27,249 nucleotides of DNA from Kofleriaceae bacterium. Its GTDB lineage: Bacteria > Myxococcota_A > Polyangia > Haliangiales > Haliangiaceae. Positions within the stretch are counted from its first letter, which is position 1. The number at the start of each line of letters is the position of its first letter. Made by a program: the position numbers and the translations under genes. Positions 231 to 21,767 of the stretch are shown piece by piece. Where the stretch lies: NCBI GenBank assembly GCA_046597055.1, contig JBKJLC010000128.1, positions 1-27,249 on the forward strand. Direction: 5' to 3'. The notes beneath the pieces were generated by a model. That model was given only the letters and a program-made list of their open reading frames with translations. It did not search any database and was not told the DNA's origin.

Positions 231-246
231 CTAGAACATGTTCTAG
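231..246. promoter_or_regulatory. KstR-like TetR operator, site 1 (CTAGAACATGTTCTAG, perfect 16-bp palindrome)
   Basis: Core 232-245 TAGAACATGTTCTA fits TnnAACnnGTTnnA. Ends just upstream of the ATG at 254 and is preceded by a -35-like TGGACA at 219-224. Confidence 0.85.
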
Positions 247-253
247 TTCGGGC

Positions 254-1222
254 ATGGAAGACGACGTCCTGGCGGCGCCGTATCGGCTGGAGTACACGTA
301 CCAGCGTTCGACCGGCCCGGTGATCGGGCGCTTTCTCGGGGCGCTGCGCGACCGCCGCCTCGAGGGCGTACGCACCGCGGCCGGGGGCGTGATGGTGCCC
401 CCGCTCGAGTACGAGCCCGACGGCACCGCGACCGGCGAGCCGGCCCCGGTCGGCCCCGGCGGGGTGGTGACGACCTGGGCCTGGGTCGCCGAGCCGCGCC
501 GCTTCCACCCGCTGACGAAGCCGTTCGCGTTCGCGCTGGTCAGGCTCGACGGCGCGTCGACCGCGATGGTGCACGCGGTCGATGCCGGCTCGCCCGACGC
601 GATGCGCACCGGCATGCGGGTGCGGCCGCGCTGGCGGCCGGAGCGCACCGGTTCGATCCGCGACCTCGAGTGCTTCGTGCCCGGCGACGCGCCCGAGGCG
701 TCTGGCGAGCCGCCGCCCGACCCGACCGCCGAACCGGGGCCACCGGTGACGCTGTTTCCGTCGCCGGTGCGGCTCGACTACACGGTCACCGCCAGCCGCA
801 ACCTGTCGACCTACCTGCGGGGGCTGGCCGAGCGCCGCATCATCGGCGGCCGGTGCGGCACCTGCACCAAGGTGTATCTGCCACCGCGCGGCGCGTGCCC
901 GACCTGCGGCGTCCCGACGACGACCCAGGTCGACGTGGCCGACCACGGGGTGGTCACCACCTTCTGCATCATCCGCATCCCGTTCGACGCGGCGCCGTTT
1001 CCGCCGCCGTACGCGGCGATCGCGGTCCTGCTCGAAGGCGCGGACATGCCGATCTTCCACCTGCTGCGCGGGATCCCACCCGAGGAGGTCCGCATGGGCA
1101 TGCGGGTCCGCGCGGTGTGGGTCCCCGATGCCGAGCTGGCCCCCACCCTCGCCAGCATCCGCTGGTTCGAACCGACCGGAGACGCCGACGTGAGCTTCGA
1201 CGACTACGCGAGGCACCTGTGA
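254..1222 (+). CDS. Tandem DUF35 (Zn-ribbon/OB-fold) acyl-CoA-binding protein, Rv3521-like partner of Ltp3/Ltp4
   Basis: Two DUF35 repeats. The first has lost its cysteines (RLEGVRT...VMVPPLEY). The second keeps CGTC...CPTC plus the OB-fold RMGMRVRAVW. Directly upstream of the ltp4/ltp3-like genes. Start taken as ATG 254 (MEDDVLAAPY). Confidence 0.85.
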   Translation: MEDDVLAAPYRLEYTYQRSTGPVIGRFLGALRDRRLEGVRTAAGGVMVPPLEYEPDGTATGEPAPVGPGGVVTTWAWVAEPRRFHPLTKPFAFALVRLDGASTAMVHAVDAGSPDAMRTGMRVRPRWRPERTGSIRDLECFVPGDAPEASGEPPPDPTAEPGPPVTLFPSPVRLDYTVTASRNLSTYLRGLAERRIIGGRCGTCTKVYLPPRGACPTCGVPTTTQVDVADHGVVTTFCIIRIPFDAAPFPPPYAAIAVLLEGADMPIFHLLRGIPPEEVRMGMRVRAVWVPDAELAPTLASIRWFEPTGDADVSFDDYARHL

Positions 1223-2241
1223 GAGACGTCGCGATCATCAGCTTCGCGCAGCTGCCGCCGACGCGCCGCGACACCGCGCGCGACGAGGTCGAGCTGGTCC
1301 AGCCGGTCGTGGTCGACGCCCTGCGCCAGGCCGGGCTCGATCGACGCGAGATCGGGTTCACCTGCTCGGGCAGCTGCGACTACCTGCTGGGCCGGCCGTT
1401 CTCGTTCGTGTTCGCGCTCGACGGGGTCGCGCCGTGGCCGCCGATCGCCGAGAGCCACGTCGAGATGGACGGCGCGTGGGCGCTGTACGAGGCGTGGGTC
1501 CGCCTGCAGCAGGACGACATCGAGACCGCGCTGATCTACTGCTACGGCAAGTCGTCGCTCGGCGACCTGAACGAGATCTTCACCCAACAGCTCGACCCGT
1601 ACTACCTGGCGCCGCTCGGCCTCGACGCGACGAGCCTGGCCGCGCTCCAGGCCCGCGCGCTGCTCGACACCGGGCGGGTCACCGAGCGCGACCTCGCCGT
1701 GGTCGCCGCCGCGCGGACCGGCGGCGAGCTCGCCGACCTGCTGGCGTCGCCGTACCTGGTCGCCCCGCTGCGCGCCCACGACTGCCCGCCGATCTCCGAC
1801 GGTGCCTGTGCGGTGGTGCTCGCCGCGGGAGACCGCGCCCGCCGCTACCCGCGACCGGCCTGGATCCGCGGCATCGATCACCGGGTCGAGCCGCACCAGC
1901 TCGGCAGCCGCGACCTGTCCCGCTCGGTGTCGACCCGGCTGGCCGCCGAGCACGCCGGTCTCGGGCGGGTCGGACCGATCGACGTCGCCGAGCTGCACGC
2001 GCCGTACAGCCATCAGGAGCTGATCCTGCGCGACGCGCTCGATCTCGAGGACGGCGTGGCGATCAACCCGTCGGGCGGCGCCCTGGCCGCCAACCCGGTG
2101 ATGGTCGCCGGCTTGAGCCGCATCGGCGAGGCCGCCGCGCGGATCCACGCCGGCACCGCGCGGGCCGCGGTCGCCCACGCGACCAGCGGGCCCTGCCTGC
2201 AACAGAACCTGGTGTGCGTGCTCGCCGCGGAGGCGTCATGA
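1219..2241 (+). CDS. ltp4: Thiolase-fold (SCP-x type) protein, Ltp4-like sterol side-chain aldol-lyase subunit
   Basis: GTG start overlaps upstream stop (GTGA). Motifs FTCSGSCDYLLGRPFSF, ESHVEMDGAWALYEAW, NPSGGALAANP, HATSGPCLQQN. Same order as Rv3521-ltp4-ltp3. Confidence 0.8.
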   Translation: MRDVAIISFAQLPPTRRDTARDEVELVQPVVVDALRQAGLDRREIGFTCSGSCDYLLGRPFSFVFALDGVAPWPPIAESHVEMDGAWALYEAWVRLQQDDIETALIYCYGKSSLGDLNEIFTQQLDPYYLAPLGLDATSLAALQARALLDTGRVTERDLAVVAAARTGGELADLLASPYLVAPLRAHDCPPISDGACAVVLAAGDRARRYPRPAWIRGIDHRVEPHQLGSRDLSRSVSTRLAAEHAGLGRVGPIDVAELHAPYSHQELILRDALDLEDGVAINPSGGALAANPVMVAGLSRIGEAAARIHAGTARAAVAHATSGPCLQQNLVCVLAAEAS

Positions 2242-3395
2242 AGAAGCGTTGCGCGATCGTCGGCATCGGCCAGACGCATCACAAGGCCAAGCGTCAGGAC
2301 GTCTCGCTGGCCGGGCTGGTCCGCGAGGCCGCCACCCGCGCCCTGGCCGACGCCGAGCTCGACTGGCGAGACATCGACGCCGTCGTCCTCGGCAAGGCGC
2401 CCGACATGTTCGAGGGCGTGATGATGCCGGAGCTGTACCTGGCCGACGCGCTGGGCGCCTCCGGCAAGCCGATCATGCGGGTCCACACCGCGGGCTCGGT
2501 CGGCGGCTCGACCGCCGTCGTCGCGGCCCAGACCGTGATGGGTGGCGTCCACAAGCGGGTCCTCACCGTCGCCTTCGAGAAGCAGTCGGAGTCGGACGCG
2601 ATGTGGGCGCTGTCGCCGTCGATCCCGTTCCAGCCCCAGCTCACCGCGGGCGCCGGCGGCTACTTCGCGCCGCTGGTGCGCGCGTACATCCAGCGTAGCA
2701 AGGCACCCGACGACGTCGGCATCGCGGTCGCGGTCAAGGACCGCGTGGCCGCGCTGCGCAACCCCTACGCCCACCTGCGCATCAAGGGCATCGACGCGGC
2801 GATGGTCCGCGACTCGCCGATGCTGTGGGATCCGATCCGCTACCTCGAGACCTGCCCGTCGTCCGACGGCGCCTGCGCGATGGTGCTCACCGACGAGGAC
2901 GGGGCCGCGCGCGCGCCGCGACCGCCGGCGTGGGTGCATGGCCTGGCCACCCGCAGCGAGCCGACCGTGTTCGCCGGCCGCAACCAGGTCGACCCGCAGG
3001 CCGGGCGCGACTGCGCCAAGGACGTCTACGCCCAGGCCGGCATCAGCGACCCGCGCCGCGAGATCGACGTCGCCGAGATCTACGTCCCGTTCTCGTGGTT
3101 CGAGCCGATGTGGCTCGAGAACCTCGGGTTCGCCGCCCTGAACGAGGGCTGGCGCATGACCGCCAGCGGCGCGACCGAGCTCGGCGGCGCGCTGCCGATC
3201 AACCCGTCGGGCGGCGTGCTGTCGTCGAACCCGATCGGCGCCAGCGGCATGCTGCGCTTCGCCGAGGCCGCGATGCAGGTCCGCGACCAGGCCGGCGAGC
3301 ACCAGGTGGCCGGTGCCCGGCGCGCGCTCGGCCACGCCTACGGCGGTGGTTCCCAGTTCTTCGCGATGTGGGTCGTCGGCCGCGATCGGCCCTGA
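2238..3395 (+). CDS. ltp3: Thiolase-fold protein, Ltp3-like sterol side-chain aldol-lyase subunit
   Basis: ATGA overlap. Motifs GKAPDMFEGVMMPELYLADALG, RVHTAGSVGGST, ETCPSSDGACA, SSNPIGASGMLRFAEAA, HAYGGGSQFFAMWVV. Confidence 0.85.
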   Translation: MKKRCAIVGIGQTHHKAKRQDVSLAGLVREAATRALADAELDWRDIDAVVLGKAPDMFEGVMMPELYLADALGASGKPIMRVHTAGSVGGSTAVVAAQTVMGGVHKRVLTVAFEKQSESDAMWALSPSIPFQPQLTAGAGGYFAPLVRAYIQRSKAPDDVGIAVAVKDRVAALRNPYAHLRIKGIDAAMVRDSPMLWDPIRYLETCPSSDGACAMVLTDEDGAARAPRPPAWVHGLATRSEPTVFAGRNQVDPQAGRDCAKDVYAQAGISDPRREIDVAEIYVPFSWFEPMWLENLGFAALNEGWRMTASGATELGGALPINPSGGVLSSNPIGASGMLRFAEAAMQVRDQAGEHQVAGARRALGHAYGGGSQFFAMWVVGRDRP

Positions 3396-3405
3396 GGAGA
3401 CACGC

Positions 3406-4581
3406 ATGTACCTCGACTACACGCCTGACGAGAAGGCGCTGCGCGATCAGCTCCGCGCGTACTTCGACGAGCTCATCACGCCCGACGTCCTCGCCGAGGT
3501 CGCCGGGACCGACGGCGGTGGCCCGCGCTACACGAAGGTCATGCGCCGGCTGGGCGTCGACGGCTGGCTCGGTGTCGGCTGGCCGCGCGAGTTCGGCGGC
3601 CGGGCCCGCCCGGTCATCGAGCAGTTCATCTTCTTCGACGAGGTCCAGCGGGCCGGCTTCCCGATCCCGTTCCTGACCCTGTGCACGGTCGGCCCGACCC
3701 TGATGAAGTTCGGCACCGAGGAGCAAAAGGCCGCGCTGCTGCCGCGCATCCTCCGCGGCGAGCTGCACTTCGCGATCGGCTACTCCGAGTCGGGCGCGGG
3801 CACCGATCTGGCGTCGCTGACGACCCGGGCGGTGCGCGACGGCGACCACTACGTGGTCAACGGCCAGAAGGTGTTCACCTCGCTGGCCGAGTACGCCGAC
3901 TACATCTGGCTGGCGGTCCGGACCGACCCGGCCGCGCCCAAGCACAAGGGCATCTCGATCCTGATGGTCGACCGGACGGCGCCGGGCGTGACGATCACGC
4001 CGATCCACACGCTGGGCGGCAACCGGACCAACCTGACGATCCTCGAGGACGTCCGGGTCCCGGTCGCCAACCGGGTCGCGCGCGAGAACGACGGCTGGAA
4101 GCTCATCACCACCCAGCTCAACCACGAGCGGGTCGCGTTGACTGCGCCCGGGCCGGTCGCCCGCTTCGTCGAGGAGACCGTCGCGTGGGCGCGCGAGACC
4201 CGACGCGGCGACGGCAGCCGCGTGATCGACCAGCCGTGGGTGCAGCTGGCGCTGGCGCGGGCCACCCAGCGAGTCGAGGCGCTGCGCCTGATGGTGTGGC
4301 GACAGGCCTGGAACGTCGGGCTCGACCGGCTCGACCCGGCCGAGTCGTCGGCGGTGAAGGTGTTCGGCAGCGAGTCGTTCGTGCTGATCTACCAGTGGCT
4401 GCTGGAGGTGCTCGGACCATCGGGCGCGCTGAAGTCGTCGTCGCCCGGCGCGCTGCTGCGCGGACGCCTCGAGACCTACTACCGGACCACCCTGGTGCTG
4501 TCGTTCGGCGGCGGCACCAACGAGATCCAGCGCGACCTCATCGCGATGCTCGGGCTCGGCATGCCGAGGGCGCCGCGATGA
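3406..4581 (+). CDS. fadE26: Acyl-CoA dehydrogenase, FadE26/FadE29 (ChsE4/ChsE2)-like catalytic subunit
   Basis: RBS GAGGAG. Motifs HFAIGYSESGAGTDLASL, NGQKVFTS, LNHER and C-terminal SPGALLRGRLE...FGGGTNEIQRDLIA. FadE26 versus FadE29 cannot be fully resolved by eye. Confidence 0.8.
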   Translation: MYLDYTPDEKALRDQLRAYFDELITPDVLAEVAGTDGGGPRYTKVMRRLGVDGWLGVGWPREFGGRARPVIEQFIFFDEVQRAGFPIPFLTLCTVGPTLMKFGTEEQKAALLPRILRGELHFAIGYSESGAGTDLASLTTRAVRDGDHYVVNGQKVFTSLAEYADYIWLAVRTDPAAPKHKGISILMVDRTAPGVTITPIHTLGGNRTNLTILEDVRVPVANRVARENDGWKLITTQLNHERVALTAPGPVARFVEETVAWARETRRGDGSRVIDQPWVQLALARATQRVEALRLMVWRQAWNVGLDRLDPAESSAVKVFGSESFVLIYQWLLEVLGPSGALKSSSPGALLRGRLETYYRTTLVLSFGGGTNEIQRDLIAMLGLGMPRAPR

Positions 4582-4616
4582 CCGCGAGCCCCGGCCCGAG
4601 CACGACAGGAGCGGCC

Positions 4617-5666
4617 ATGGACTTCTCACTCACCGACGAGCAGCAGGAGATCGCGGCCCTGGCCGCCAAGATCTTCGCCGATCACCCGGCCCGAACCGAC
4701 GAGGACGCGCTGTGGACCGCGCTCGCCGGCGCCGGCCTGCTCGGCGTCGCCGTGCGCGATGACGTCGGCGGCGCCGGGCAGAGCCTGCTCGAGCACTGCG
4801 CGCTCCTGGTCGCGGCCGGCGCGGCCTGCGTCCAGGCGCCGCTGTGGGCGGTGACCACCGCGGCGATGGTGATCGACCACGCCGGCACCCCGGCCCAGCG
4901 CGCGCTGCTGCCCGACGTGACCCGCGGCGCGAGCCTGGTCACGGTCGCGCTCCACGAGCCCGACGGCGGCGATCCGTTCGCACCCTACACGGTGGTGCGC
5001 GCCGGTCGCTTGCACGGCGTGAAGACCTGCGTCCCGGCGGCGCATCGCGCCAGCCGCTTCGTGGTGTCGGCGCGGACCGAGGCCGGCGAGCTCGGCCTCT
5101 ACCTGGTGGACCCGACCGGGCCCGGCGTGACGGTGGAGCGGCAGACCGCGACCACCGGCGCGCTGCACGGCCTGGTCACGCTGCACGACGCCCCGGGCGA
5201 GCGGCTCGGCGACGCCGACACCCTCGGCTGGCTGCTCGACCGGGCGTCGGTCGGCCTGTGCGCGCTCGAGCTCGGCATCGTCGAGAAGGTGCTGCGCATG
5301 ACCGCGACCTACACGACGCAGCGCGTGCAGTTCGACCGGCCGATCGCGACCTTCCAGGCGGTGGCCCAGCGCGCGGCCGACGCGTACATCGACGTCGAGA
5401 CGATCCGGCTCACGATGTGGGAGGCGACCTGGCGACTGGCCGAGGGCCGCCCCGCCACCCGCGAGATCGCGATCGCCAAGGCGTTCGCGGCCGAGGCCGG
5501 CCAGCGCGTCACCTACGCCGCCCAGCACCTGCACGGCGGCATCGGCTTCGACCTCGACTACCCGCTCGCGAAGTACTACCCGCTGTCGAAGTGGATCGAG
5601 CTGAACCTGGGCGGCGCCGGCGCGCACCTGGCTCGGCTCGGCGCCCTGCTCGCCAGCGGCGACTGA
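4617..5666 (+). CDS. fadE27: Acyl-CoA dehydrogenase partner subunit, FadE27/FadE28 (ChsE5)-like
   Basis: MDFSLTDEQ start with AGGA RBS (alternative ATG at 4578 overlaps the upstream stop). Motifs RVQFDRPIATFQAVAQRAADAYID and QHLHGGIGFDLDYPL. Short ACAD adjacent to a long ACAD, as in alpha2beta2 steroid ACADs. Confidence 0.78.
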   Translation: MDFSLTDEQQEIAALAAKIFADHPARTDEDALWTALAGAGLLGVAVRDDVGGAGQSLLEHCALLVAAGAACVQAPLWAVTTAAMVIDHAGTPAQRALLPDVTRGASLVTVALHEPDGGDPFAPYTVVRAGRLHGVKTCVPAAHRASRFVVSARTEAGELGLYLVDPTGPGVTVERQTATTGALHGLVTLHDAPGERLGDADTLGWLLDRASVGLCALELGIVEKVLRMTATYTTQRVQFDRPIATFQAVAQRAADAYIDVETIRLTMWEATWRLAEGRPATREIAIAKAFAAEAGQRVTYAAQHLHGGIGFDLDYPLAKYYPLSKWIELNLGGAGAHLARLGALLASGD

Positions 5667-5692
5667 CCAGCGCCGCGCCAACCGCGGCTGCG

Positions 5693-7660: not shown

Positions 7661-7683
7661 GAGCCGACCCCGGACCCTGATCT

Positions 7684-7882: not shown

Positions 7883-8920
7883 CTACGAGGCGGGCGACGG
7901 CGCGGTCGGCGACGGTGACGACGGTGCGGGCGCGGGCGCGGGCCCGGCGGCGGTCGCGAGCTCGACGACCTCGGGGGGCGCGGCGGGCTCGCCGTAGAAC
8001 TGCTTGGACCAGCGCCGGAACAGGCCGATCGGTCCGTCGCCATCGACCAGGACCGGCGGGTTCACGTAGATCTTGTTCTCCCAGATCGGGATGTCCTGCT
8101 CGAGCTGGCGGCCGATCTCGCGCTGGAAGGCGGCGCCGACCGTGCTGGTCACGCCCTCGTTCACCATCTTGCGGACGCTGAAGGCGAACCGCAGCTCGAC
8201 GTAGTCCTCGTCGATGGTGGTGGCCGAGCTCACCAGCAGGGTCTCGACCAGGCCCCGGAACCGGCTGGTGGTGAAGCCGAAGCCGTGGGCGTACACCTCG
8301 ACCTCGCCCTTGACCTTGCCCTGCGGCGTCTTCATCGCCGTGGTCGAGGTCGCGTGGAGGATGTGGCCCAGCGTCTCGGCCCTGGTCGCCGGCATCTCCT
8401 GGGTACCGTGCAGGTACAGGAAGTGGGCCGAGTCCACCGAGTTCTCCGCCATCTCCTGGTTGTGCGTGCGGATTTTCCAGCTGCGCTTCTCGTACGTCGT
8501 CCAGTCGGCGTGGCCGAACTCGGGGAGCACCGGGACCTCCCAGCTCGGCGCGGCGCCGTCGGGGTGGAACCAGGTCATCAGCAGGCCGTTGACCTCGCGC
8601 AGCGGCCAGGTGCCGAGCTGCGCGCGCGGCGGGATCTTCTTGCCGTACGGGATCTCGCGGCACGCGCCGGTGCCGTCGAACTTCCAGGCGTGGAACGGGC
8701 ACTCGATGCAGTCGCCCTTGACCTTGCCGCCGTGCCCGAGGTGGGCGCCGAGGTGAGGACAGTGGGCGTCGAGGAGACGGGCCTCACCGCCCTCGGTGCG
8801 GAACAGGACCAGGTCTCGTCCGAAGTAGCGCAGCGGGCGCACGGCGCCGGGCTGGAGCTCGTCGGCGTAAGCAACCTGGAACCAACCGGTCGGGTAGCGC
8901 GGCATCGGGAAGCGGCTCAT
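7883..8920 (-). CDS. Rieske [2Fe-2S] non-heme iron oxygenase, KshA / Neverland (cholesterol 7-desaturase) family
   Basis: RBS AGGAG before ATG 8920. Rieske ligands CPH...CPFH, mononuclear Fe motif ENSVDSAHFLYLH, C-terminal QDIPIWENK...DGPIGLFRRWSKQFY. Confidence 0.88.
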   Translation of the reverse strand: MSRFPMPRYPTGWFQVAYADELQPGAVRPLRYFGRDLVLFRTEGGEARLLDAHCPHLGAHLGHGGKVKGDCIECPFHAWKFDGTGACREIPYGKKIPPRAQLGTWPLREVNGLLMTWFHPDGAAPSWEVPVLPEFGHADWTTYEKRSWKIRTHNQEMAENSVDSAHFLYLHGTQEMPATRAETLGHILHATSTTAMKTPQGKVKGEVEVYAHGFGFTTSRFRGLVETLLVSSATTIDEDYVELRFAFSVRKMVNEGVTSTVGAAFQREIGRQLEQDIPIWENKIYVNPPVLVDGDGPIGLFRRWSKQFYGEPAAPPEVVELATAAGPAPAPAPSSPSPTAPSPAS

Positions 8921-8943
8921 CGCGACTCCTTTTCGTTGCTGAC

Positions 8944-8957
8944 TGAAACATGTTTCA
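8944..8957. promoter_or_regulatory. KstR-like operator, site 2 (TGAAACATGTTTCA)
   Basis: Perfect 14-bp palindrome fitting TnnAACnnGTTnnA in the 70-bp divergent gap between the Rieske gene and the acyltransferase operon. Confidence 0.85.
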
Positions 8958-8990
8958 CTCGCACAGGCAAGCAGGTAGGCTCCGAAGGCC

Positions 8991-9884
8991 ATGTCGACCT
9001 CGACCAAGGAAGCCGGCCGCCTGCTGCAGTGGCTGCACCGGAGAGCGGGCGCGCCCGTCGCTGCCAGCGACCCGGGCGAGCACGATCCGATCGCGGTCGC
9101 GCAGGTCCTGCGCTTCGCCAGCAAGTTCTTCGGCCCGCGCCGCTACTTCGATCTCGACGCGCAGGGAATGGAACATGTTCCACCTACGCCCACGATGATC
9201 GTCTCGAACCACTCGGGCGGCACCAGCATCCCCGACGTGTGGGGCTTCGGCTACACCTGGTACACCCACTTCGGGCTCGAGCGCGTCATCCACCCGATGG
9301 CCCACGAGATCATCCTGTCGACCCGGATCACCGCGCGCTTCTTCGGCCGCCTGGGCGTGCTGCGCGCCGGGCGCGGCGTCGCCGCCGAGGTGCTGACCCG
9401 CTGGAAGCGCGACCTGCTGGTGATGCCCGGCGGCGATGTCGACACCTGGCGGCCCTACCGGGATCGCTACAAGGTCCAGTTCGGCGGCCGCACCGGCTAC
9501 GCGCGCTCGGCGATCACCGCCGGCGTGCCGATCGTGCCGGTCGCCAACGCGGGCGCCCACGAGACCCTGATGGTGCTCAGCGACGGCCGCGCGCTGGCCC
9601 GCCGGCTCCACCTGCACGAGCTGACCCGCGCCAACGTGTTTCCGATCCACCTGTCGCTGCCGTGGGGCCTGACCATCGGTCCGTGGCCGCACCTGCCGAT
9701 CCCCGGCAGGTTCCGCTACCGGTTCGGCAAGCCGATCGCGCCGCCGCCGCTGGCGCCGGGCGAGCTGCCGTCCGACCAGGCGGTGCGCGATCTCGACGCG
9801 ACCGTGCGGGCCGCGGTCCAGGGCCTGCTCGACGGGCTGCGCCTCGAGTCCGACGACGCGGCCAGCGCGCGGAGGGCGGCGTGA
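8991..9884 (+). CDS. Lysophospholipid acyltransferase family protein (PlsC/DGAT2-like)
   Basis: VSNHSGGTSIPD (catalytic H...D), LLVMPGGDVD, GYARSAITAGVPIVPV, RYRFGKPI. Confidence 0.85.
   Translation: MSTSTKEAGRLLQWLHRRAGAPVAASDPGEHDPIAVAQVLRFASKFFGPRRYFDLDAQGMEHVPPTPTMIVSNHSGGTSIPDVWGFGYTWYTHFGLERVIHPMAHEIILSTRITARFFGRLGVLRAGRGVAAEVLTRWKRDLLVMPGGDVDTWRPYRDRYKVQFGGRTGYARSAITAGVPIVPVANAGAHETLMVLSDGRALARRLHLHELTRANVFPIHLSLPWGLTIGPWPHLPIPGRFRYRFGKPIAPPPLAPGELPSDQAVRDLDATVRAAVQGLLDGLRLESDDAASARRAA
9169..9182. promoter_or_regulatory. KstR-like operator, site 3 (TGGAACATGTTCCA), intragenic
   Basis: Perfect 14-bp palindrome encoded as ATG GAA CAT GTT CCA, four consecutive A/T-ending codons in a GC3-rich gene. 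Confidence 0.7.
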
Positions 9885-10639
9885 CCGCGCCCGCGTATCC
9901 GCCTGGCCGGCAGCTGCTGGCCGGCAAGACCGTGCTCATCACGGCCGCGGCCGGCACCGGCATCGGCTTCGCGGTGGCCAAGCGCGCGGTCGAGGAGGGC
10001 GCGCGCGTGATGATCAGCGACGTCCACGAGCGCCGGCTCGGCGAGGCGGCCAAGGAGCTGGGCGTGCCGTTCGCGCGCTGTAACGTCGGGGTCGAGGCCG
10101 ACGTCCAGGCGCTGTGGGAAGCCGCCGGCCGCGAGCTGGGTGGGGTCGACGTGCTGGTCAACAACGCCGGCCTCGGCGCCACCGCGCCGCTGGTGGAGAT
10201 GACCGACGAGCAATGGAGCGCGGTCCTCGACGTCAGCCTCACCGGCACGTTCCGCATGATGCGGGCCGGGCTGCGCCACATGATGCCGCGCAAGACCGGC
10301 GTGATCGTCAACAACGCCTCGGTGCTGGCGTGGCGGGCCCAGGCCGGCCAGTCGGCCTACGCGGCGGCCAAGGCCGGCGTCATGGCGCTCACCCGCTGTG
10401 CCGCAGTCGAGGCGGCCCCGGCCGGCGTGCGCGTCAACGCAGTGGCGCCCAGCCTCGCGATGCACAAGCACCTGGTGAAGGTGACCAGCCAGGAGCTGCT
10501 CGACGAGCTGACCTCGCGCGAGCTGTTCGGCCGCGGCGCCGAGCCGTGGGAGGTCGCCAACGTGATCGTGTTCCTGGCCAGCGACTACGCGTCGTACATG
10601 ACCGGCGAGGTCGTGTCAGTGTCGAGCCAGCACCCGTAG
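9881..10639 (+). CDS. ipdF: Short-chain dehydrogenase, IpdF (Rv3559c)-like HIP-CoA pathway reductase
   Basis: Diagnostic TAAAGTGIG N-terminus, ISDVHERRL, NNASVLAWRAQAGQSAYAAAK (YxxxK), C-terminal GEVVSVSSQHP. GTGA overlap. Confidence 0.88.
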   Translation: MTAPAYPPGRQLLAGKTVLITAAAGTGIGFAVAKRAVEEGARVMISDVHERRLGEAAKELGVPFARCNVGVEADVQALWEAAGRELGGVDVLVNNAGLGATAPLVEMTDEQWSAVLDVSLTGTFRMMRAGLRHMMPRKTGVIVNNASVLAWRAQAGQSAYAAAKAGVMALTRCAAVEAAPAGVRVNAVAPSLAMHKHLVKVTSQELLDELTSRELFGRGAEPWEVANVIVFLASDYASYMTGEVVSVSSQHP

Positions 10640-10673
10640 CGCATCCCTCACGCATCCACGCAGGAGTCGTTCC

Positions 10674-11138
10674 ATGATCGACAAGACCGCGGTCGGCGCC
10701 GTCGGTGAGCCGTTCGAGCTCATCGTCGAGCGCGGCAAGATCGGCGAGCTGGCCCGCGCGATCGGCGCGGTGCACGCCGACCACCTGGCGACACCGGCGA
10801 TCCCGCCGCCGACCTTCTTCACCACGATGTTCCACTGGGAGCACCACCGCGCCGGCGCCAACCCGTGGCACCGGGTCGGCATGAGCGAGGAGCGCGGCAT
10901 GCACGCCGAGCAGGAGTACGTGTTTCACGGTCCGCCGCCGGCGGCCGGCACCCGGCTGACCGCGACCTCGCGCATCGCCGAGATCACCGAGAAGCAGGGC
11001 CAGCGTGGCGGCGTGCTGACCTTCGCCGTGATGGTGACCGAGCTGCGCGACGAGACCGGCCGGCTGGTCGCCGAGGCCCGGATGACCGGGGTCGAGACCG
11101 AGCGGGCGCCCGACGCCGCGCCCGAGGCGACTCGATGA
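10674..11138 (+). CDS. MaoC-like dehydratase N-terminal-type (HadA-like) hotdog protein
   Basis: VERGKIGELARAIG, PPTF, MHAEQEYVFHGPPPAAGTRL. RBS AGGAG. Confidence 0.8.
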   Translation: MIDKTAVGAVGEPFELIVERGKIGELARAIGAVHADHLATPAIPPPTFFTTMFHWEHHRAGANPWHRVGMSEERGMHAEQEYVFHGPPPAAGTRLTATSRIAEITEKQGQRGGVLTFAVMVTELRDETGRLVAEARMTGVETERAPDAAPEATR

Positions 11139-11551
11139 CGCTGGCCCCCCCGCCGCCGCGGGTGTTCGGGCCGATCACGCGCACCGACGTCGTGCGCTAC
11201 CAGGGCGCGTCGGGCGATCTCAACCCGGTCCACCACGACGAGCCGTTCGCGCGCGGCGCCGGCTATCCGGCCCCGCTGGTGGTCGGCATGTTGCCGGCCG
11301 GCGCGATGTTCGCGTGGGCCAGCGACTGGCTGGGGCCGGCCAACGTGCGGCACGTCCGGTGCCGGTGGCAGGCGCCGGTGTTCCCCGGCGACGTCCTGAC
11401 CACGACCGGCAGGGTCGCCCGCGACTACCTCGAAGCCGGCGAGCGCCGGATCGATCTCGAGCTGGCGTGCACGAAGCAGGACGGCGCGATCGCGGTACGA
11501 GGCTGGGCGACCTTCGTCGCCCCGGGTGTTCCAGATCAGGAGATGCGATGA
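11135..11551 (+). CDS. MaoC-family (R)-enoyl-CoA hydratase/dehydratase, catalytic (HadB-like) subunit
   Basis: Hydratase motif [18 protein letters not shown] (D-x4-H) and PVFPGD. ATGA overlap with the preceding hotdog gene. Confidence 0.85.
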
Positions 11552-12570
11552 AGCTCGGCTTGATGGTCGGATATTCGGGCGCCAAGGTCGCCCTCGACAT
11601 GGCGACGATCCTCGAGGCCGAGCGCCTCGGCTACGACTCGGTGTGGACCGCCGAGTCGTGGGGCTCCGATGCGGTCAGCCCGCTGGCGTGGATCGGCGCG
11701 CAGACCACGAAGATCCGGCTCGGCACCGCGATCATGCAGCTGCCGGGGCGGTCGCCGGCCAACGCGGCGATGACCGCGATGACGCTCGACGGGCTCAGCG
11801 GCGAGCGCTTCATCCTCGGCCTCGGCACCAGCGGGCCCCAGGTGGTCGAGGGCTGGCACGGCGTGGCCTGGCACAAGCCGCTGACCTGGCTGCGCGAGTA
11901 CATCACCATCGTGAAGGCGATCCTGGCCCGCGAGGCGCCGCTGGCGTTCCAGGGCGAGCGCTACCGCATCCCGTACGACGGCCCCAACTCGGCCGGCCTC
12001 GGCAAGTCGCTCAAGAGCATGGTCCACGGCCGCCGCGACATCCCGATCTACTCGGGCGCGATGGCGCCGCTCGGCCAGGAGCTGTGCGGCGAGCTGTGCG
12101 ACGGCATCCTGCTCACGTGCATGAACCCGGAGCGGCCCGAGGTGATCCTCGACCGGGTCGCCGCCGGTCGCGCCAAGGTCGGCAAGACCCTCGACGGCTT
12201 CGAGGTCGCGCCGACGGTGGCGGTCGCGGTCGGGCCCGACGTCGAGGCGCTGCGCCGACCGTTCAAGGAGCAGCTCGCCCTGTACATCGGCGGCATGGGC
12301 GCGAAGGAGAAGAACTTCTACCGCGAGTACCTGAGCCGGGTCGGCTACGAGGCCGAGTGCGCGCGCATCCTGGAGCTGTTCATGGCCGGCCAGCGCAAGG
12401 AGGCGGTCGCCGCGGTGAGCGACGCCATGGTCGACACGCTGTACTTGATCGGCCCGCCCGCGCGGATCAAGGAGCGGTTCGCGGCGTGGAAGGACGCGGG
12501 CGTGACCACGATGATCATCGGCAGTCACCAGCCCGAGGCGATCCGGCTGATGGCGGAGCTCGCGCTGTGA
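11548..12570 (+). CDS. LLM-class F420-dependent oxidoreductase, Rv3520c family
   Basis: [59 protein letters not shown]. Confidence 0.88.
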
Positions 12571-13166
12571 AGATCGGCCTGGTTGGCGGCACCGGCAAGG
12601 AAGGACGCGGCCTGGCGGCGCGCTGGGCCCGGGCCGGTCACGAGATCGTGATCGGCTCGCGCGACCCGGCGCGCGGCGACAACGCGGCCGCGGCCGACGC
12701 CGAGGTGGTGGTGCTGTGCGTACCCTACCCCGCCCACGCCACGACGGTGCGCGAGCTGGCGCCCCGGCTCGAGGGCAAGATCGTCATCGATCTGGTGGTG
12801 CCGCTGGTCCCGCCGCGCGTGACCAGGGTGGTCATCCCCGAGGGCGGCGCGGCCGCGCTCGAGGCCCAGCGCCTGGCGCCAGGCGCCCGGGTGGTCGGCG
12901 CGCTGCACCACGTCAGCTCGGTCCATCTCGGCGACCTCGAGCACCGCATGACCGGCGACGTCCTGATCTGCGGCGATGACCCGGCCGCCAAGGACACGGT
13001 GATCGCGCTGATCGCCGACCTCGGCATGCGCGGCCTCGACGCCGGGCCGCTCGCCAACGTGGTCGCGCTCGAGGCGATGACGCCGGTGCTGCTGTACCTC
13101 AACCGGCGCTACCAGCGGACCGGGCTCGGGCTGCGCATCGAGGGTCTGCCCGACGAGGCCACATGA
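12567..13166 (+). CDS. npdG: NADPH-dependent F420 reductase (F420H2:NADP+ oxidoreductase)
   Basis: [49 protein letters not shown]...[18 protein letters not shown] overlap. Confidence 0.88.
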
Positions 13167-13951
13167 TCGCGTGCGCGCCCCGGCTCGAGGCGATCGCCCT
13201 GCCCGGCCTGCCGATCGTCGGGCCCGGCGACGATCTCGCCGCGCTGATCGCGGCCGGCCTGGCGCGCGCCGCGCTCACCCTCGACGACGGCGACGTCCTG
13301 GTGGTGGCGTCGAAGCTGGTGTCGCGCGCCGAGGGTCAGTTCGTCGACCTCGGGACGATCGAGCCCTCGGCGCGTGCCCACGAGCTGGCCGCGCGCACCG
13401 GCCACGATCCGCGTCACGTCGAGCTGGTCCTGCGCGAGTCGGTCGCGCTGTCGCGCACCGGGCCCGGCGTGCTGATCGTCCGGCACCGGCTCGGCTTCGT
13501 GGTCGCCAACGCCGGGATCGACCTGTCGAACGCGGCGCCGCCGCGCGCGCTGGCCGCGGGCCGCCCCGGTCCCTGGGCCCTGACCCTGCCGCGCGCCCCC
13601 GACGCCACCGCGCAGCGGCTGTGGGCGGCGCTCGTCCCCGGGCGGCCGATCGGCATCGTCATCAGCGACTCGTTCGGACGGCCGTTCCGGCTCGGCACCG
13701 TCGGCACCGCGATCGGCGCGGCCGGGGTGCCCGCGCTGTGGGATCAGCGCGGCCGGCGCGACCTGTTCGAGCGGCCGCTCGAGCGCACCGTCACCGCGCT
13801 CGCCGATCAGGTCGCCGCGGTCGCCGACCTGGTGGCCGGTCAGGCCGCCGAGGCGCGCGGCGTGGTGCTCGTGCGCGGCCTGCGCTTCGCGGCGACCGAC
13901 GGCGGCGCCGCGGCGCTGATCCGTCCCGCGACCGAGGACATGTACGCATGA
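13163..13951 (+). CDS. cofE: Coenzyme F420-0:L-glutamate ligase (stand-alone, no nitroreductase domain)
   Basis: [56 protein letters not shown]. Confidence 0.92.
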
Positions 13952-14886
13952 CGGCCCCTCGCATCCCGCGGGTGGTCGCGCTGTCGGGCGGGATCGGCGG
14001 CGCCAAGCTCGCCGCCGGGCTGGCCGCGGCCCTGCCCGCCGGCGCGCTCACGGTCATCGTGAACACCGGCGACGACTTCGTGCACTGGGGCCTCCGGATC
14101 AGCCCCGATCTCGACACGGTGATGTACACGCTGGCCGGGCTCGCGCACCGCGAGCAGGGCTGGGGCCTCGCCGGCGAGACCTTCGCCGCGCTCGCGATGG
14201 TCGAGCGCCTCGGCGGCCCGGCCTGGTTCCGGCTCGGCGACCAGGACCTCGCGACGCACCTGATGCGCACGACCCGGCTGGCGGCCGGCGCCAGCTTGAC
14301 CGCGGTCACCGCCGAGCTGTGCGAGAGCCTGGGGGTCACCACCCGCATCCTGCCGATGTGCGACTCGCCGCGGCCGACGCTGCTCGACACCGACGACGGC
14401 ACGCTCGAGTTCCAGGACTGGCTGGTGCGCCGCCGCGGCGCGCCCATGGTGACCCGGGTGTGGTCGGCCGGGCCCGCCACGCCGACGCCGGCGGTACTGG
14501 CCGCGATCGCCGAAGCCGACGTCGTGGTCATCGGGCCGTCCAACCCCTACGTCTCGATCGATCCGATCCTCAATCTCGACGGCATGGGCGCCGCGCTCGC
14601 ACGTCGGCCGGTGGTCGCGGTCAGCCCGATCGTCGCCGGGCGTGCGATCAAGGGGCCGCTCGCCGCGATGATCCCGCGGCTGGCCGGTCGCGCCCCGAGC
14701 GCGGCGGCGATCGCCGATCACTACCGCGGGCTGATCACCGGGCTGGTGCTGGAGCACGGCGACGAGGCCCCCGCCGACCTGCGGGTGCTGACGACCGCGA
14801 CCGTCATGGCCAACGACGACGACCGGATCCGGCTCGCGCGCGAGGTGCTCGGGTTCGCCGGCGTCGCGACCGAGGTTCGGCCGTGA
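13948..14886 (+). CDS. cofD: 2-phospho-L-lactate/phosphoenolpyruvate transferase (CofD/FbiA)
   Basis: [17 protein letters not shown]...[57 protein letters not shown]. Confidence 0.93.
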
Positions 14887-15575
14887 TCGGCGGCACCTGG
14901 GCGCTGGTCCCGACCCGGTCGTTCCGGACCGGCAAGTCGCGCCTGACCGAACGCCGCCTCGGGCGTGATCGCGCGGCGATCGCCCGCGCGCTGTTCGAGG
15001 GCACCGCGGCCGTGCTGCGCCGACACGGCGGCCTCGCCGGCGTTCTGGTCGCCACCGACGGCGATGACGTCGTCACTGCCGCCCGCGGTCACGGCGCCGA
15101 GATCCTGCGCGACCCGGCCCGGCCCGTGGCAAGCCACACGACCCTGCTGGCGTCGATCATCGACCGCGGGCTGGCCGAGCTGGCCAGACGCGGCGCGGCG
15201 GCGGTGGTGGTGGTGATGGCCGACCTGCCGAGGCTCGCGGGCAGCGACCTCGACGTGCTGCTGAGCGCGCTGGCCGGCGCCGAGCTGGTGCTCGCACCCG
15301 ACCGGGCCGCGCTGGGGACCAACGCGCTCGCGATCCGCTTGCCGACGCCGATCGCGACCGCCTTTGGCAACCGCGACAGCTACCCGCGCCACCTGGCGAC
15401 CGGGCGCCGGGCCGGCGTGCGCACCGCGGTGGTCACCACCCCCGGCCTCGCGTTCGATCTCGACCTGCCCGCGGATCTCGAGGAGCTGATCACGGCGACG
15501 GGCGCGGCGCGAGATCGATCCCGCGGTGCAGCGGTGGATCGCGGTCGGTCATCCCCACCGGGAGCGCGAAGGTGA
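14883..15575 (+). CDS. cofC: 2-phospho-L-lactate/phosphoenolpyruvate guanylyltransferase (CofC/FbiD)
   Basis: LVP...[41 protein letters not shown]. The C-terminal tail overlaps the convergent gene by 86 nt. Confidence 0.88.
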
Positions 15576-16902: not shown

Positions 16903-17034
16903 GAGACACTTCCACACGGCGGCCGGCCGTGCTGCCAGGGCATTCGCCGGCAACCGCCGGAAACCGGCGCGGTGCGGCCGGGAGTGGCGCCGGCCGCGCG
17001 CCTGGCCGTCGAATTGCTGAGGGCGTTCCGCCGA

Positions 17035-18438: not shown

Positions 18439-18518
18439 GAGACACTTCCACACGCCGGCGGGTCACGCGGCCAGTGCATTCGCTGGCACTCGCTGGAAAC
18501 CCGCGCGATTATTGAAGA

Positions 18519-18571
18519 AGTGCGGACTCCAGTCCTCGCAATCACCAGCGAGTGTGGACTCCAGTCCTCAC
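18519..18571. repeat. Two 21-bp palindromic direct repeats (REP-like doublet)
   Basis: AGTGCGGACTCCAGTCCTCGC (18519-18539) and AGTGTGGACTCCAGTCCTCAC (18551-18571), 19/21 identical, each with a GGACT-CC-AGTCC dyad. Directly after the cofH stop. Confidence 0.85.
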
Positions 18572-18573
18572 TT

Positions 18574-19851
18574 TCAGTCGTCGATTCTCTGAGCGACACC
18601 GCGCTCGACCGCCGCCGGTCGCCGGAGCGGGATCAGCTGGTCGCCGCCCCGCCGGGCCCGCTGGAAGCGGAACCGGGGATCGCGGGTGAGCGCGTCGTAG
18701 GTGCCGAAGGTGGCGGCCGCATCGGTGAGGCCATCGAGCGGATCGCCGGCCTGGGTCGCGTCCGCCGGCGGCACCAGCTGGTACAGCGTGGTCCGCTGGG
18801 CGGCGATCCGACCGGCGCCGCGCGCGACCCGCCGCAGCTCGGCCGGGGTCGCGACCTGACCGTGGCGGGCGCCCGCCGAGGTCGAGATGCTCTCGTTCAT
18901 CAGGGTGCCGCCGAGGTCGTTGACGCCGCACGCCAGCAGGTGCTCGGCGCCGCGCAGCCCTTCCTTTACCCACGACACCTGCAGGTTGGCGAGGTCGGCG
19001 CCGAGCATCAGGCGCGCGAGCGCGTGCGTGCGCACCACGTCGATGCCGCCCGGGCCCGGCTGCACGCCGGGCTCGGCCGCGAACAGCGGCGCCTCGGTGT
19101 GCACGAACGACAGCGGCACGAACTCGGTGAAGCCGCCGGTGTCGCGCTGGAGATCGCGCAGGCGCTCGAGGTGGCGCAGGCGATCGGCGGGCGACTCGAC
19201 GTGGCCGTACATCATCGTCGCGGTGGTGGGCAGGCCGACCTCGTGGGCGGTGCGGACCACGTCGAGCCACTCGGCGCTGGTGATGCGCCCGGGCGCGATG
19301 CGATCACGGATGGTGTCGTCGAGGATCTCGGCCGAGGTGCCGGGCAGCGAGCCAAGCCCGGCCTCGCGCAGCGCGAGCAGGTACTCGCGGATCGACAGGC
19401 GGGCGCGGTGGGCTCCGTACTGCACCTCCTCCGGCGAGAACGCGTGCAGGTGGAGCTCGGGCGCGGCCCGCTTCACCGCGCGGGTCAGCTCGACGTAGAG
19501 CATGCCGTCGATGCCCGGCGCGAGCCCGGCCTGCAGGCACACCTCGGTGGCGCCGAACGCGCGCGCCTCCAGCGCGCGGCGCACGATCTCGTCGACGCCC
19601 AGGAAGTAGCCCTGGTCGGAGCGAACGCCGCGCGAGAACGCGCAGAACTTGCACTTCTTGATGCAGACGTTGGTGAAGTTGATGTTGCGGTTGACCACGT
19701 AGGTGACGCGATCGCCGGCCTGGCGCGCGCGCAGCTCGTCGGCGGTCGCGCACAGCGCGTGGAGGTCGCCGCCGGTCGCCTCGGTGAGCGGCAACAGCTC
19801 GCGCCACGACGGTGTGTGGCCGGCCAGGCAGGCGGCGAGGATCGCTCTCAC
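18574..19851 (-). CDS. cofH: FO synthase subunit 2 (radical SAM)
   Basis: VTYVVNRNINFTNVCIKKCKFCAF (CxxxCxxC), GATEVCLQAG, HAFSPEE, PGTSAEILDD, TATMMYGHVE, FTEFVPL, QVSWVKEG, NDLGGTLMNESI. GTGA overlap with cofG. Confidence 0.93.
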   Translation of the reverse strand: MRAILAACLAGHTPSWRELLPLTEATGGDLHALCATADELRARQAGDRVTYVVNRNINFTNVCIKKCKFCAFSRGVRSDQGYFLGVDEIVRRALEARAFGATEVCLQAGLAPGIDGMLYVELTRAVKRAAPELHLHAFSPEEVQYGAHRARLSIREYLLALREAGLGSLPGTSAEILDDTIRDRIAPGRITSAEWLDVVRTAHEVGLPTTATMMYGHVESPADRLRHLERLRDLQRDTGGFTEFVPLSFVHTEAPLFAAEPGVQPGPGGIDVVRTHALARLMLGADLANLQVSWVKEGLRGAEHLLACGVNDLGGTLMNESISTSAGARHGQVATPAELRRVARGAGRIAAQRTTLYQLVPPADATQAGDPLDGLTDAAATFGTYDALTRDPRFRFQRARRGGDQLIPLRRPAAVERGVAQRIDD

Positions 19852-20945
19852 GCGCGACCGCCCGGCACCGCCGCCGCGTGCCCGGCGAGGAGCCGCGGCG
19901 CCAGCTCGGGCGCGACGAACGCCGGGCTGCGCCAGCCGTCGTGGATGGGCAGCCGCGGCGCGAGCGTGAAGCCGGCGGCGGCGCAGCTGGCGGCCAGCTG
20001 CTCGAGGTGCGGCCAGGCGTAAGCCAGGTTGATGTAGTCGGGCGTCAGCGGCGAGATGCCGCCGAGGTCGTTGATGCCGGCGGCGAGCAGCGGCGCGAGG
20101 TCGGCCGACAGGTTGGGCGGCGCCTGCACGGTGATGTCCTCGTCGAGCACCAGGCGGGCCAGCGCGATCGCGCGGGCATGCTCGTCCTCGCCTGGCTCGG
20201 GCGCGTCGGCCATGGGGGTCGCGGCGTGCGCGCGGAACCGCTGCACGATCACCTCCTGGATGTGACCGTGGCGCTGGTGCAGCGCGCGGATCGCGAGCAG
20301 CGCGTCGAGGCGCTCGGCCTCGGTCTCGCCGATCCCGATCAGGAGCCCCGACGTGAACGGGATGTGCAGCGCGCCGGCCTCCTCGATCATCGCCAGCCGC
20401 ACCGCTGGTCGCTTGTCGGGCGCGCGGTGATGAGGCTGGCCGCGCTGGCACAGCCGCGCGCTGGTGGTCTCGAGCATCAGCCCGAGGCTGGCGTTGACCG
20501 GCCGCAGCGCCGCCATCTCGTGCTCGGTGAGGATGCCGGCGTTGGTGTGCGGCAGGAGCCCGGCGGCCAGCGCCGCGCCGCACGCCCACACCAGGTACTC
20601 GACCGTGCTGGCGAAGCCCCAGCTCGCGAGCAGGGTCTGGTACGAGGGAAACACCGACTCGGGACGATCGCCCAGGCAGAACAGCGCCTCGGTGCAGCCG
20701 AGCTGACGCGCGCGCGCCAGCGATGCGGTGACCTGGTCGGGCGACATCGTGAGCGCGCCGAGATCCTTGGGCGACCGGCGAAACGCGCAGTAGTCGCACA
20801 CGTCGCGACACAGGTTGGTCAGCGGCAGGAACACCTTGGGCGAGTAGGTGATGCGGCGGCCCCACCCATGATCGCGGCGTTCGCCGGCAGCGGCGACCAG
20901 CTCGGCGGTCGACAGCGCCAGGAACGCGTGGGCCGCGTCGCTCAC
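19848..20945 (-). CDS. cofG: FO synthase subunit 1 (radical SAM)
   Basis: ITYSPKVFLPLTNLCRDVCDYCAF, GCTEALFCLGDRPE, GLLPHTNAG, SLGLMLE, PFTSGLLIGIGET, HIQEVIVQ, QAPPNL, GGISPLTPDYIN. Confidence 0.93.
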   Translation of the reverse strand: MSDAAHAFLALSTAELVAAAGERRDHGWGRRITYSPKVFLPLTNLCRDVCDYCAFRRSPKDLGALTMSPDQVTASLARARQLGCTEALFCLGDRPESVFPSYQTLLASWGFASTVEYLVWACGAALAAGLLPHTNAGILTEHEMAALRPVNASLGLMLETTSARLCQRGQPHHRAPDKRPAVRLAMIEEAGALHIPFTSGLLIGIGETEAERLDALLAIRALHQRHGHIQEVIVQRFRAHAATPMADAPEPGEDEHARAIALARLVLDEDITVQAPPNLSADLAPLLAAGINDLGGISPLTPDYINLAYAWPHLEQLAASCAAAGFTLAPRLPIHDGWRSPAFVAPELAPRLLAGHAAAVPGGRA

Positions 20946-21724
20946 GCGCCACCCGCGGTGGCGGCGGCGTCGAGAAAGGCCGGGCGCTCACCGCCGCCAT
21001 GCACGACCAGCGCGGTGCCGCTGACCCACGCCGCCAGCGGCGAGGCCAGGAACAGGCACGCGCCCGCGACGTCGTCGGGCGTGCCCATGCGCCCGAGCGG
21101 GATGGTGGCGCCGACCGCCGCGATCCCGGCCTCGCTGCCGTAGTGCAGGTGGGCCTGCTCGGTGCGGATCGGACCGGCCACGATCGCGTTCACCCGCACC
21201 TTCGGCGCCCACTCCACCGCGAGCGACTGGGTCAGGTTGATGAGGCCAGCCTTGGCCGCGCCGTACGCGGCGGTCCCCGGCGACGGGCGCAGGCCGCTGA
21301 CGCTGGCGATGTTGAGGATCACGCCCCCCCCGGCCTGGCGCTGCATCACCGCGTTGGCACGCTGGGCCAGCCACAGCGGCGCGATCAGGTTGAGCTGGAT
21401 GATCGACGCCGAGAACCGCGGCGACACCGTGGCCGCGACCACCGGCGGCGAGCCGCCCGCGTTGTTGACCAGCACGTCGAGGTGACCGTGGCGATCCATC
21501 GCCGCCGCGATCACGCGATCGAGCTGCTCGACCTCGCGCACGTCGGCGTCGACGAAGCTGGCCTGACGGCCGCCCGCGGCCGGCAGCTCGGGCGGCGTGG
21601 TGCGTCCACACACGACGACCTCGGCCCCGGCGGCGAGGAAGCGCAGCGCGATCCCGCGCCCGATGCCACGACCACCGCCGGTGATCACCACCACCTTCCC
21701 ACTCAGGTCGAGACCGTCGGCCAT
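20942..21724 (-). CDS. Short-chain dehydrogenase, Rv3549c-like (C/D-ring cluster)
   Basis: RBS AAGGAG. TGGGRGIG, NNAGGSP, SVSGLRPSPGTAAYGAAKAG, AVEWAPKVRVN, VHGGGERP. Divergent from echA20 as in M. tuberculosis. Confidence 0.85.
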   Translation of the reverse strand: MADGLDLSGKVVVITGGGRGIGRGIALRFLAAGAEVVVCGRTTPPELPAAGGRQASFVDADVREVEQLDRVIAAAMDRHGHLDVLVNNAGGSPPVVAATVSPRFSASIIQLNLIAPLWLAQRANAVMQRQAGGGVILNIASVSGLRPSPGTAAYGAAKAGLINLTQSLAVEWAPKVRVNAIVAGPIRTEQAHLHYGSEAGIAAVGATIPLGRMGTPDDVAGACLFLASPLAAWVSGTALVVHGGGERPAFLDAAATAGGA

Positions 21725-21753
21725 GGAAGCTCCTTCGCGCTGGACACCTAAAG

Positions 21754-21767
21754 TGGAACATGTTCTA
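21754..21767. promoter_or_regulatory. KstR-like operator, site 4 (TGGAACATGTTCTA)
   Basis: Fits TnnAACnnGTTnnA with one break in dyad symmetry, in the 59-bp divergent gap. TGGACA at 21741-21746 has the same spacing as at site 1. Confidence 0.85.

Follow-up and report, generated by a model that had tools for sequence, protein, structure and literature searches.

A KstR-like repressor is predicted to control a sterol-catabolism pathway, C/D-ring genes included, in a Myxococcota bacterium

Contig C48 of an uncultured Kofleriaceae bacterium (Myxococcota), 27,249 nt long and referred to here as the window, carries four 14-bp palindromes among genes for predicted sterol catabolism. These palindromes are most likely the operators of a KstR-like TetR protein encoded on another contig, C1, which would repress the whole sterol pathway, the C/D-ring genes included. 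What we observe directly are the sites, their intergenic placement and conservation, a KstR-like gene with a site of its own, and that neither a KstR2 gene nor a KstR2 site was found at the C/D-ring genes. The switch is a familiar one in a new phylum, and it is wired differently: the operator of the C/D-ring genes is swapped, one site is embedded in coding sequence, and genes for F420 synthesis stand in the operons. Papers are cited by their PMC numbers.

The assembly comprises 8.4 Mb (8.38 Mb scanned) at 72% GC and is 94% complete and 7.6% contaminated. C48 shares a unique 117-bp overlap with contig C298; its overlap with C117, also 117 bp, falls in a repeat that separates the two halves of one gene. 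C298, C117 and C1 hold kshA-, kstD-, hsaA-G-, fadD19-, fadD3- and Mla/mce-like genes, and in three of three contiguous relatives the cluster lies mostly on one contig, kstR included. By its gene content, the genome carries a predicted complete sterol-catabolism pathway.

The four 14-mers stand where the earlier note on this DNA had placed them, at 232–245, 8944–8957, 9169–9182 and 21754–21767. As it had said, three are perfect palindromes and the one at 21754 is imperfect, and the three intergenic sites occupy the only three divergent gaps between called genes in the window. The sites fit the 14-bp palindrome TnnAACnnGTTnnA, the KstR consensus printed in PMC1995591. Its expectation of 0.03 occurrences per window for the core AACATGTT is correct under a base-composition model. 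The background counted in the genome is roughly 3-fold higher (of 43 cores in the 8.38 Mb, subtraction leaves about 26 that are not part of the operator set), which leaves the verdict on the sites unchanged. With up to two mismatches, TnGAACATGTTCnA matches the window five times against a shuffle mean of 0.12, and 0 of 100 shuffles reach five.

We scored the sites, at a threshold of 22 bits, with a position weight matrix (PWM) whose training set was 51 sites, all taken from relatives. Operator 1 (232–245; 28.5 bits) lies 8 bp upstream of a chsH-like gene. Operator 2 (8944–8957), in the divergent gap between a Rieske oxygenase and an acyltransferase gene, has the top score of 36 bits, and its sequence is identical in 9 of 9 orthologous loci. 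Operator 3 (9169–9182) falls inside the acyltransferase open reading frame (ORF, 8991–9884), on the codons of M-E-H-V-P. Operator 4 (21754–21767; 33.7 bits) sits in the 59-bp gap between a short-chain dehydrogenase/reductase (SDR) gene and echA20. The fifth consensus match, at 23585–23598 inside ipdA, scores 19.3 bits, below the score gap, and is not counted as an operator. It is probably due to chance, because it uses modal codons (P = 0.41 given the peptide), 6 of the 17 IpdA homologues in the alignment carry it, and a synonymous change abolishes it in one.

Across the genome, TRRAACRYGTTYYA has 18 exact matches against 0 for the reversed pattern. The PWM scan returned 19 sites at or above the threshold; 18 are intergenic, and the exception is 9169. 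Thirteen of the 19 are on the cluster contigs C48, C298, C1 and C117, where they adjoin kstD-, kshA-, hsaA-G-, fadD3-, fadD19-, echA19- and Mla/mce-like genes. Rather than being scattered over the genome without a steroid link, the motif thus forms the steroid-associated set that the earlier note expected.

The same note had predicted that the repressor is encoded outside the window. Its likely gene is at C1:10076-10735, and the closest characterised relative of the encoded protein is KstR. It is the only TetR_C_20 match in a genome with 23 TetR genes in total, and its best PDB match by sequence is M. tuberculosis KstR (E 3e-19). Three named actinobacterial KstRs each find this protein as their first match in the genome. 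In a quick tree it groups with three actinobacterial KstRs (Shimodaira–Hasegawa-like approximate likelihood-ratio test 99), and the other 22 TetRs fall outside. The helix-turn-helix reads VALGTLY in the C1 TetR and VAVGTLY in KstR. A fold search with its AlphaFold model places M. tuberculosis KstR at ranks 1–10; the model is a single-sequence prediction with a predicted local distance difference test score of 66 and a poorly built helix-turn-helix, and it served this search only.

The C1 TetR gene has an operator in its own promoter gap (C1:9994), an autoregulatory-type arrangement, and close relatives have likewise. No operator was found beside its most distant homologues, for example L066, L068 and L070-L074. 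The closest homologues, 81–86% identical, come from records named Kofleriaceae or Myxococcales bacterium. Fifteen of 60 relatives have an orthologue (at least 56% identity). The 13 relatives with at least eight sites per strand are all among these 15 carriers, while the other 45 genomes have 0–4 sites, and IpdA is present in 12 of the 13.

We next consider the C/D-ring genes. M. tuberculosis, M. smegmatis as well as R. jostii carry a KstR2 site in the gap between the SDR gene and echA20 (PMC3068626), and the mycobacterial C/D-ring genes are described as unaffected by KstR deletion (PMC3068626, PMC5380842). Here the same gap holds a KstR site, and the C/D-ring genes are thus not outside the predicted regulon; the ipdF-like and fadD3-like runs are also preceded by gaps with KstR sites. 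The C/D-ring genes are 54–71% identical to their actinobacterial counterparts and stand in the same order, and IpdA matches IpdA-type structures (E 4e-101). Of 12 near relatives, 11 have an exact KstR site upstream of echA20/ipdA (one locus ends early with its contig), and the site is kept despite gene rearrangement in six Polyangiaceae/Polyangiales loci. In the phylum, 81 of 300 sampled genomes have an echA20-like gene; the 29 best-scoring loci comprise 27 with an exact KstR site, one with a single mismatch and one with none.

The KstR2 motif AnCAAGnnCTTGnT was not found upstream of echA20 in 30 loci, and of its three matches genome-wide none is on the cluster contigs. The echA20 gap of the four actinobacterial comparators, by comparison, never holds an exact KstR site, and in two of them it holds a one-mismatch KstR2 site. 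Two actinobacterial KstR2 queries found no kstR2 gene in this 94% complete assembly. The candidates for KstR2 were rejected. The best full-length match to KstR2 (26%) is a FadR-type protein beside electron-transfer flavoprotein (ETF) genes, and two TetR_C_24 proteins have ETF and phospholipase D-like genes as neighbours.

Several points weigh against our interpretation, and we first give those on the regulator. The C1 TetR scores 109.4 bits where the NCBIfam KstR equivalog NF033703 has a cut-off of 280, and we therefore file it as KstR-like, not as KstR proper. It is only 31–33% identical to actinobacterial KstRs; given this and the low score, its ligand may differ from that of KstR. What we say of its binding, expression and ligand response is read from sequence. 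The relatives are non-independent samples, and 8 of the 29 best-scoring phylum loci belong to one genus. Two orthologue-carrying relatives, G011 and G021, have at most one exact site. Moreover, 6 of the 19 sites (C70:5330, 11614 and 22445; C31:22425; C161:16572 and 16594) precede genes without a known sterol role. On this ground, all the sites might belong to a general lipid or acyl-CoA regulon, whose repressor would sense fatty or terpenoid acyl-CoAs, not steroids, and whose sterol-like genes would act on another substrate. An insertion in the ligand domain relative to KstR is consistent with such a regulon, as are the scores of HsaA, HsaC, HsaD and KstD, which are below the NCBIfam cut-offs (HsaC scores higher against a biphenyl dioxygenase). 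However, the C/D-ring set is steroid-specific, with the identity and actinobacterial order given above, the FadD3 and FadD19-family synthetases are above their cut-offs, and the fold search matches KstR first. We consider a general regulon very unlikely.

On the side, the genes behind the six out-of-cluster operators encode uncharacterised surface or hypothetical proteins, a thioesterase and a glucose-methanol-choline oxidoreductase, which is a candidate sterol oxidase. The KstR orthologues of G021 (L109, 66%) and G011 (L110, 56%) stand in genomes in neither of which IpdA was found; they are possibly remnants after loss of the pathway.

The remaining points on this side concern the wiring of the C/D-ring genes, which is not KstR-based throughout the phylum. 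In a second, lower-scoring group of 14 loci ordered ipdA-ipdB-ipdC-echA20, one has an exact site directly before ipdA, in two the site is some 2 kb upstream, and the other 11 lack one within that distance. KstR2-like proteins (31–35% identical) occur beside a cytochrome P450 gene in 4 of 70 phylum genomes, and we accordingly do not claim that the phylum lacks KstR2. If a KstR2 had diverged to the same degree, it could hardly be distinguished from other TetRs, and the incompleteness and contamination of the assembly add to this. Finally, Tsukamurella (L145) has a one-mismatch KstR-like site beside a KstR2-like site, 41–60 bp upstream of echA20; the paired sites are a possible intermediate or vestige of rewiring. 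We also notice that the KstR2-like TetRs of L201-L204 are divergent from the P450 gene and that their genomes hold a second echA20-like copy; in L204, KstR2-type sites flank the KstR2-like gene.

These points bear on a second possibility, that KstR binds the sites while the C/D-ring operon has a further layer of control, namely a diverged sensor of the CoA thioester of methylhexahydroindanedione propionate (HIP-CoA) that uses another motif or lies on a missing contig. The assembly is incomplete, and KstR itself is about 32% identical across the two phyla, so orthology is compatible with a match at 30%, and four Polyangiaceae genomes have full-length KstR2 matches at that level. Each of the three contiguous relative clusters also has one further TetR in or beside it. 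But these TetRs are not common to the clusters; in the tree, two of them do not join the KstR2 pair, and for the third the match to KstR2 covers under half of its length. Six weak KstR2-like matches in relatives have neither steroid-cluster neighbours nor the motif, in 23 of 27 genomes the KstR2 motif is no more frequent than its reversed control, and the 59-bp gap is mostly taken up by the operator and two -35-like hexamers. A second layer is therefore improbable in our view; if it were real, the two-tier logic would survive in another form.

The operator at 9169 is dual-coded. It is spelled by four rare codons with genome frequencies of 0.06, 0.12, 0.02 and 0.04 (joint P 4.7e-6), and it is retained in 9 of 9 orthologues (70–77% identical) and in 0 of 21 distant homologues. 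Of the 19 peptides reading EHVP in the predicted proteome, one alone is written in the 9169 codons. One might propose that a different regulator, or none, uses the palindromes and that 9169 merely reflects a G-x-E-H-V-P protein motif; this peptide motif is common in the acyltransferase family, and binding by the C1 TetR is a prediction. Yet the distant homologues and the 18 other EHVP peptides use GC-ending codons, the orthologues keep the rare codons even where M is replaced by L, and the number of sites tracks the KstR orthologue across the 60 genomes, leaving this proposal with hardly any probability.

Taking 9169 as an operator of the KstR-like protein, we speculate on its role. No -35-like hexamer was found on either side of it in 10 of 10 copies. 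On this ground we rejected an internal promoter and treat 9169 as a putative auxiliary or roadblock operator. Its distance from 8944 is 225 bp (once 226) across the orthologues, which could simply reflect a protein N-terminus free of indels. A dual-coded operator at fixed spacing offers a test case for auxiliary-operator action by a TetR protein.

The promoter sequences suggest where the operators lie. A T(T/G)G(A/C) word stands exactly 13 bp before the operator in 29 of 41 echA20 promoters, and at most two promoters have it at any other offset. With the word at this fixed distance, the operator would cover the spacer and the -10 region, which is also the arrangement described for mycobacterial KstR (PMC1995591). 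In the window, the -35-like word points rightward at 232, leftward at 8944 and both ways at 21754. TGGACA is found to the left of 232 only, TTGCCT faces the Rieske gene at a conserved offset, and TTGCGG the leftward SDR unit. For the rightward promoter at 8944, a TAnnnT -10-like box lies 18–19 bp right of the operator and is conserved in 10 of 10 copies. A sigma-70 consensus scan gave no match within 8700–10000.

The earlier note had counted six outward transcription units. Five are supported, since the -35/-10-like signals face five units and none faces the leftward gene at 1–121. The note mentions neither that one of the five is the C/D-ring operon, a KstR2 target in Actinobacteria, nor that 9169 falls within a gene. 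The gene at 1–121 has no family match and no homologue in any fetched locus, and it is missing at that place in three of three contiguous relative clusters.

The first of the five is the side-chain unit (254..5666, + strand), which encodes a ChsH2/OB-fold protein, two thiolase-like proteins and two acyl-CoA dehydrogenases; its gene order matches that of three relatives. We take the thiolases to be ltp4- and ltp3-like and the dehydrogenases to be fadE26/27-like. The mycobacterial gene names used here partly follow PMC5380842. Operator 1 likely represses rightwards only, judging from its promoter signals. M. tuberculosis has a KstR site in the Rv3520c/Rv3521 gap (PMC1995591), and in Nocardia and Tsukamurella a KstR site stands at the same gene as operator 1's. 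The start codon of the chsH-like gene is 8 bp past operator 1 (window 232–256) and 8–17 bp in close relatives, a short distance that suggests a leaderless transcript.

The leftward unit of operator 2 is the Rieske oxygenase with a KshA_C domain (7883..8920, - strand). To the right, 8991..15575 (+ strand) encodes the acyltransferase, an IpdF-like SDR, two MaoC proteins, an Rv3520c-family luciferase-like monooxygenase-type (LLM) oxidoreductase, Fno, cofE, cofD and cofC; with gaps of at most 35 bp, these genes probably form one operon. The leftward unit of operator 4 consists of the Rv3549c-like SDR, cofG and cofH (18574..21724, - strand), which have overlapping stop and start codons. The C/D-ring unit (21784..27249, + strand) holds echA20-, ipdA-, ipdB-, ipdC- and echA13-like genes and an acyl-CoA dehydrogenase gene cut by a repeat at the contig end.

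Based on this geometry, we propose a mechanism. A repressor dimer would bind each 14-bp palindrome, between the -35-like hexamer (13 bp upstream) and the -10 region, and would block RNA polymerase. The repressor would come off on binding an early sterol acyl-CoA, by analogy with KstR 3-oxo-cholest-4-en-26-oyl-CoA, an inducer assumed on the strength of PDB titles and review passages. Release would switch on the genes for uptake, side chain, A/B rings, C/D rings and F420 synthesis in one step. The site at 9169 may tighten repression of the long ipdF-LLM-cof operon and of the divergent Rieske gene.

CofC, CofD, CofE, CofG, CofH, Fno and the Rv3520c-family F420-dependent LLM oxidoreductase all score above their NCBIfam cut-offs, and the F420 genes lie in the runs starting at operators 2 and 4. 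The operons thus hold a full F420 biosynthesis pathway, and F420 production is predicted. In the same genus, a CofD-family gene is present in 6 of 7 IpdA-positive and 0 of 9 IpdA-negative genomes. Among the relatives, it was not found in 3 of 12 IpdA-positive genomes. Of the 48 others, 9 have such a gene, and some family members there may be non-F420 proteins. The F420 module is linked to the cluster and is not obligatory. As for other F420 enzymes, PF04075 has no match in the genome, and neither has its control; TIGR03618 has three matches below the cut-off, and contig C247 encodes a second LLM, a candidate for a further F420-dependent enzyme. On these results, exclusive use of F420 by the sterol step is unsupported. 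The F420 genes in the regulon hint at which class of substrate the uncharacterised Rv3520c family acts on.

The system shares much with the KstR (Rv3574/MSMEG_6042) regulon of Mycobacterium and Rhodococcus (PMC1995591): the operator TnnAACnnGTTnnA, a TetR_C_20 TetR, a near-identical recognition helix, an autoregulatory site, an operator that probably lies between -35 and -10, predicted targets in uptake, side-chain and A/B-ring degradation, and a site at the Rv3521-like gene. It differs in its Myxococcota host, in its 31–33% identity and score below the equivalog cut-off, in including the C/D-ring operons and F420 synthesis, and in one conserved operator inside coding sequence. Here kstR is divergent from a kstD-like gene, whereas in the KstR system it is divergent from fadE34. 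With the KstR2 (Rv3557c) regulon (PMC3068626, PMC5380842) it shares the HIP target genes and the divergent arrangement of an Rv3549c-like SDR and echA20-ipdA-ipdB-ipdC around a gap of about 60 bp, but this gap holds the KstR motif, not AnCAAGnnCTTGnT, and the search for a KstR2 gene found none. The steroid clusters of proteobacteria (Comamonas TesR/TeiR, PMC6678751) likewise come from Gram-negative hosts, with A/B- and C/D-ring genes in one cluster; they differ in regulator family and gene order, and identity to them is lower. IpdA is 61–67% identical to actinobacterial and 50–60% to proteobacterial records. For a Novosphingobium locus we noted one match to a loose pattern and none that fits the tight operator consensus exactly. 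In the KstR2 system, the kstR2 gene sits next to fadA6/ipdF.

We built an IpdA+EchA20 tree with LG+G4 on 23 of 32 rows and rooted it on three proteobacteria; in it, four sequences from actinobacteria lie nested among the KstR-operated Myxococcota. Holding the Myxococcota together is rejected by the approximately unbiased test (p 0.007; 0.002 with the second group). The tree includes only four actinobacteria, its groups were defined only once a first tree was known, and no mixture model was used. The KstR tree, on the other hand, gives sister groups, not nesting. Several transfers out of Actinobacteria are possible, and PMC4810484, whose main text names no myxobacteria, argues for an actinobacterial origin. 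Taken jointly, the results allow a tentative and rather doubtful scenario: one-repressor control might be older and kept across many Myxococcota families, the actinobacterial C/D-ring genes might derive from within them and have been rewired to KstR2 later, and the Rv3520c-family enzyme might be a dedicated F420-dependent sterol step.

According to published surveys, aerobic steroid degradation belongs to Actinobacteria and Proteobacteria, and the KstR/KstR2 split is the actinobacterial rule (PMC4810484, PMC5790920). In the main texts of PMC4810484, PMC5790920 and PMC8498797 we found no Deltaproteobacteria or myxobacterial names, though their supplements could list such genomes. In the open-access literature, supplements being outside the search, we came across no paper that describes KstR or a steroid regulon in Myxococcota. 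Our analysis extends the KstR operator, with a KstR-like repressor over a predicted complete pathway, to this phylum; if the doubtful scenario above is true, many Myxococcota families would form a large guild of sterol degraders that has been overlooked. An orthologous promoter with a different operator in two phyla is a clean natural case of regulon rewiring. It also opens to experiment the question of what mycobacteria require a HIP-CoA switch of its own for; blocked C/D-ring steps are described as draining CoA (PMC5380842).

We finally notice several features of the cluster itself. The fadE31-like acyl-CoA dehydrogenase gene is split between 26314–27249 and C117:33162-33491. Numbered on a relative's full-length protein, its first 267 residues end at a palindromic repeat (about 112 genomic matches) and its last 110 are on C117; either the repeat truly inserted into the gene or the assembly broke at it. 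A REP-like repeat with about 65 matches fills the echA20-ipdA gap (22552–22795), where the genes abut in relatives. A Y1/IS200-like transposase gene lies inside the cluster (6591–7337, - strand), with related copies across the genome; together with the REP-like repeat it possibly forms a REP-associated transposase system. Between cofC and cofH, two tandem FG-GAP-repeat proteins with cysteine-rich N-termini (15490–18453, - strand) have no operator and are absent at that place in three relatives. Behind kstR, C1:11175-16259 encodes an Mla/mce-type ATP-binding cassette set of two ATPases, two MlaE and two MlaD proteins with two upstream operators. This set is a candidate sterol importer of the Gram-negative cell, and relatives have two additional unannotated genes in front of it.

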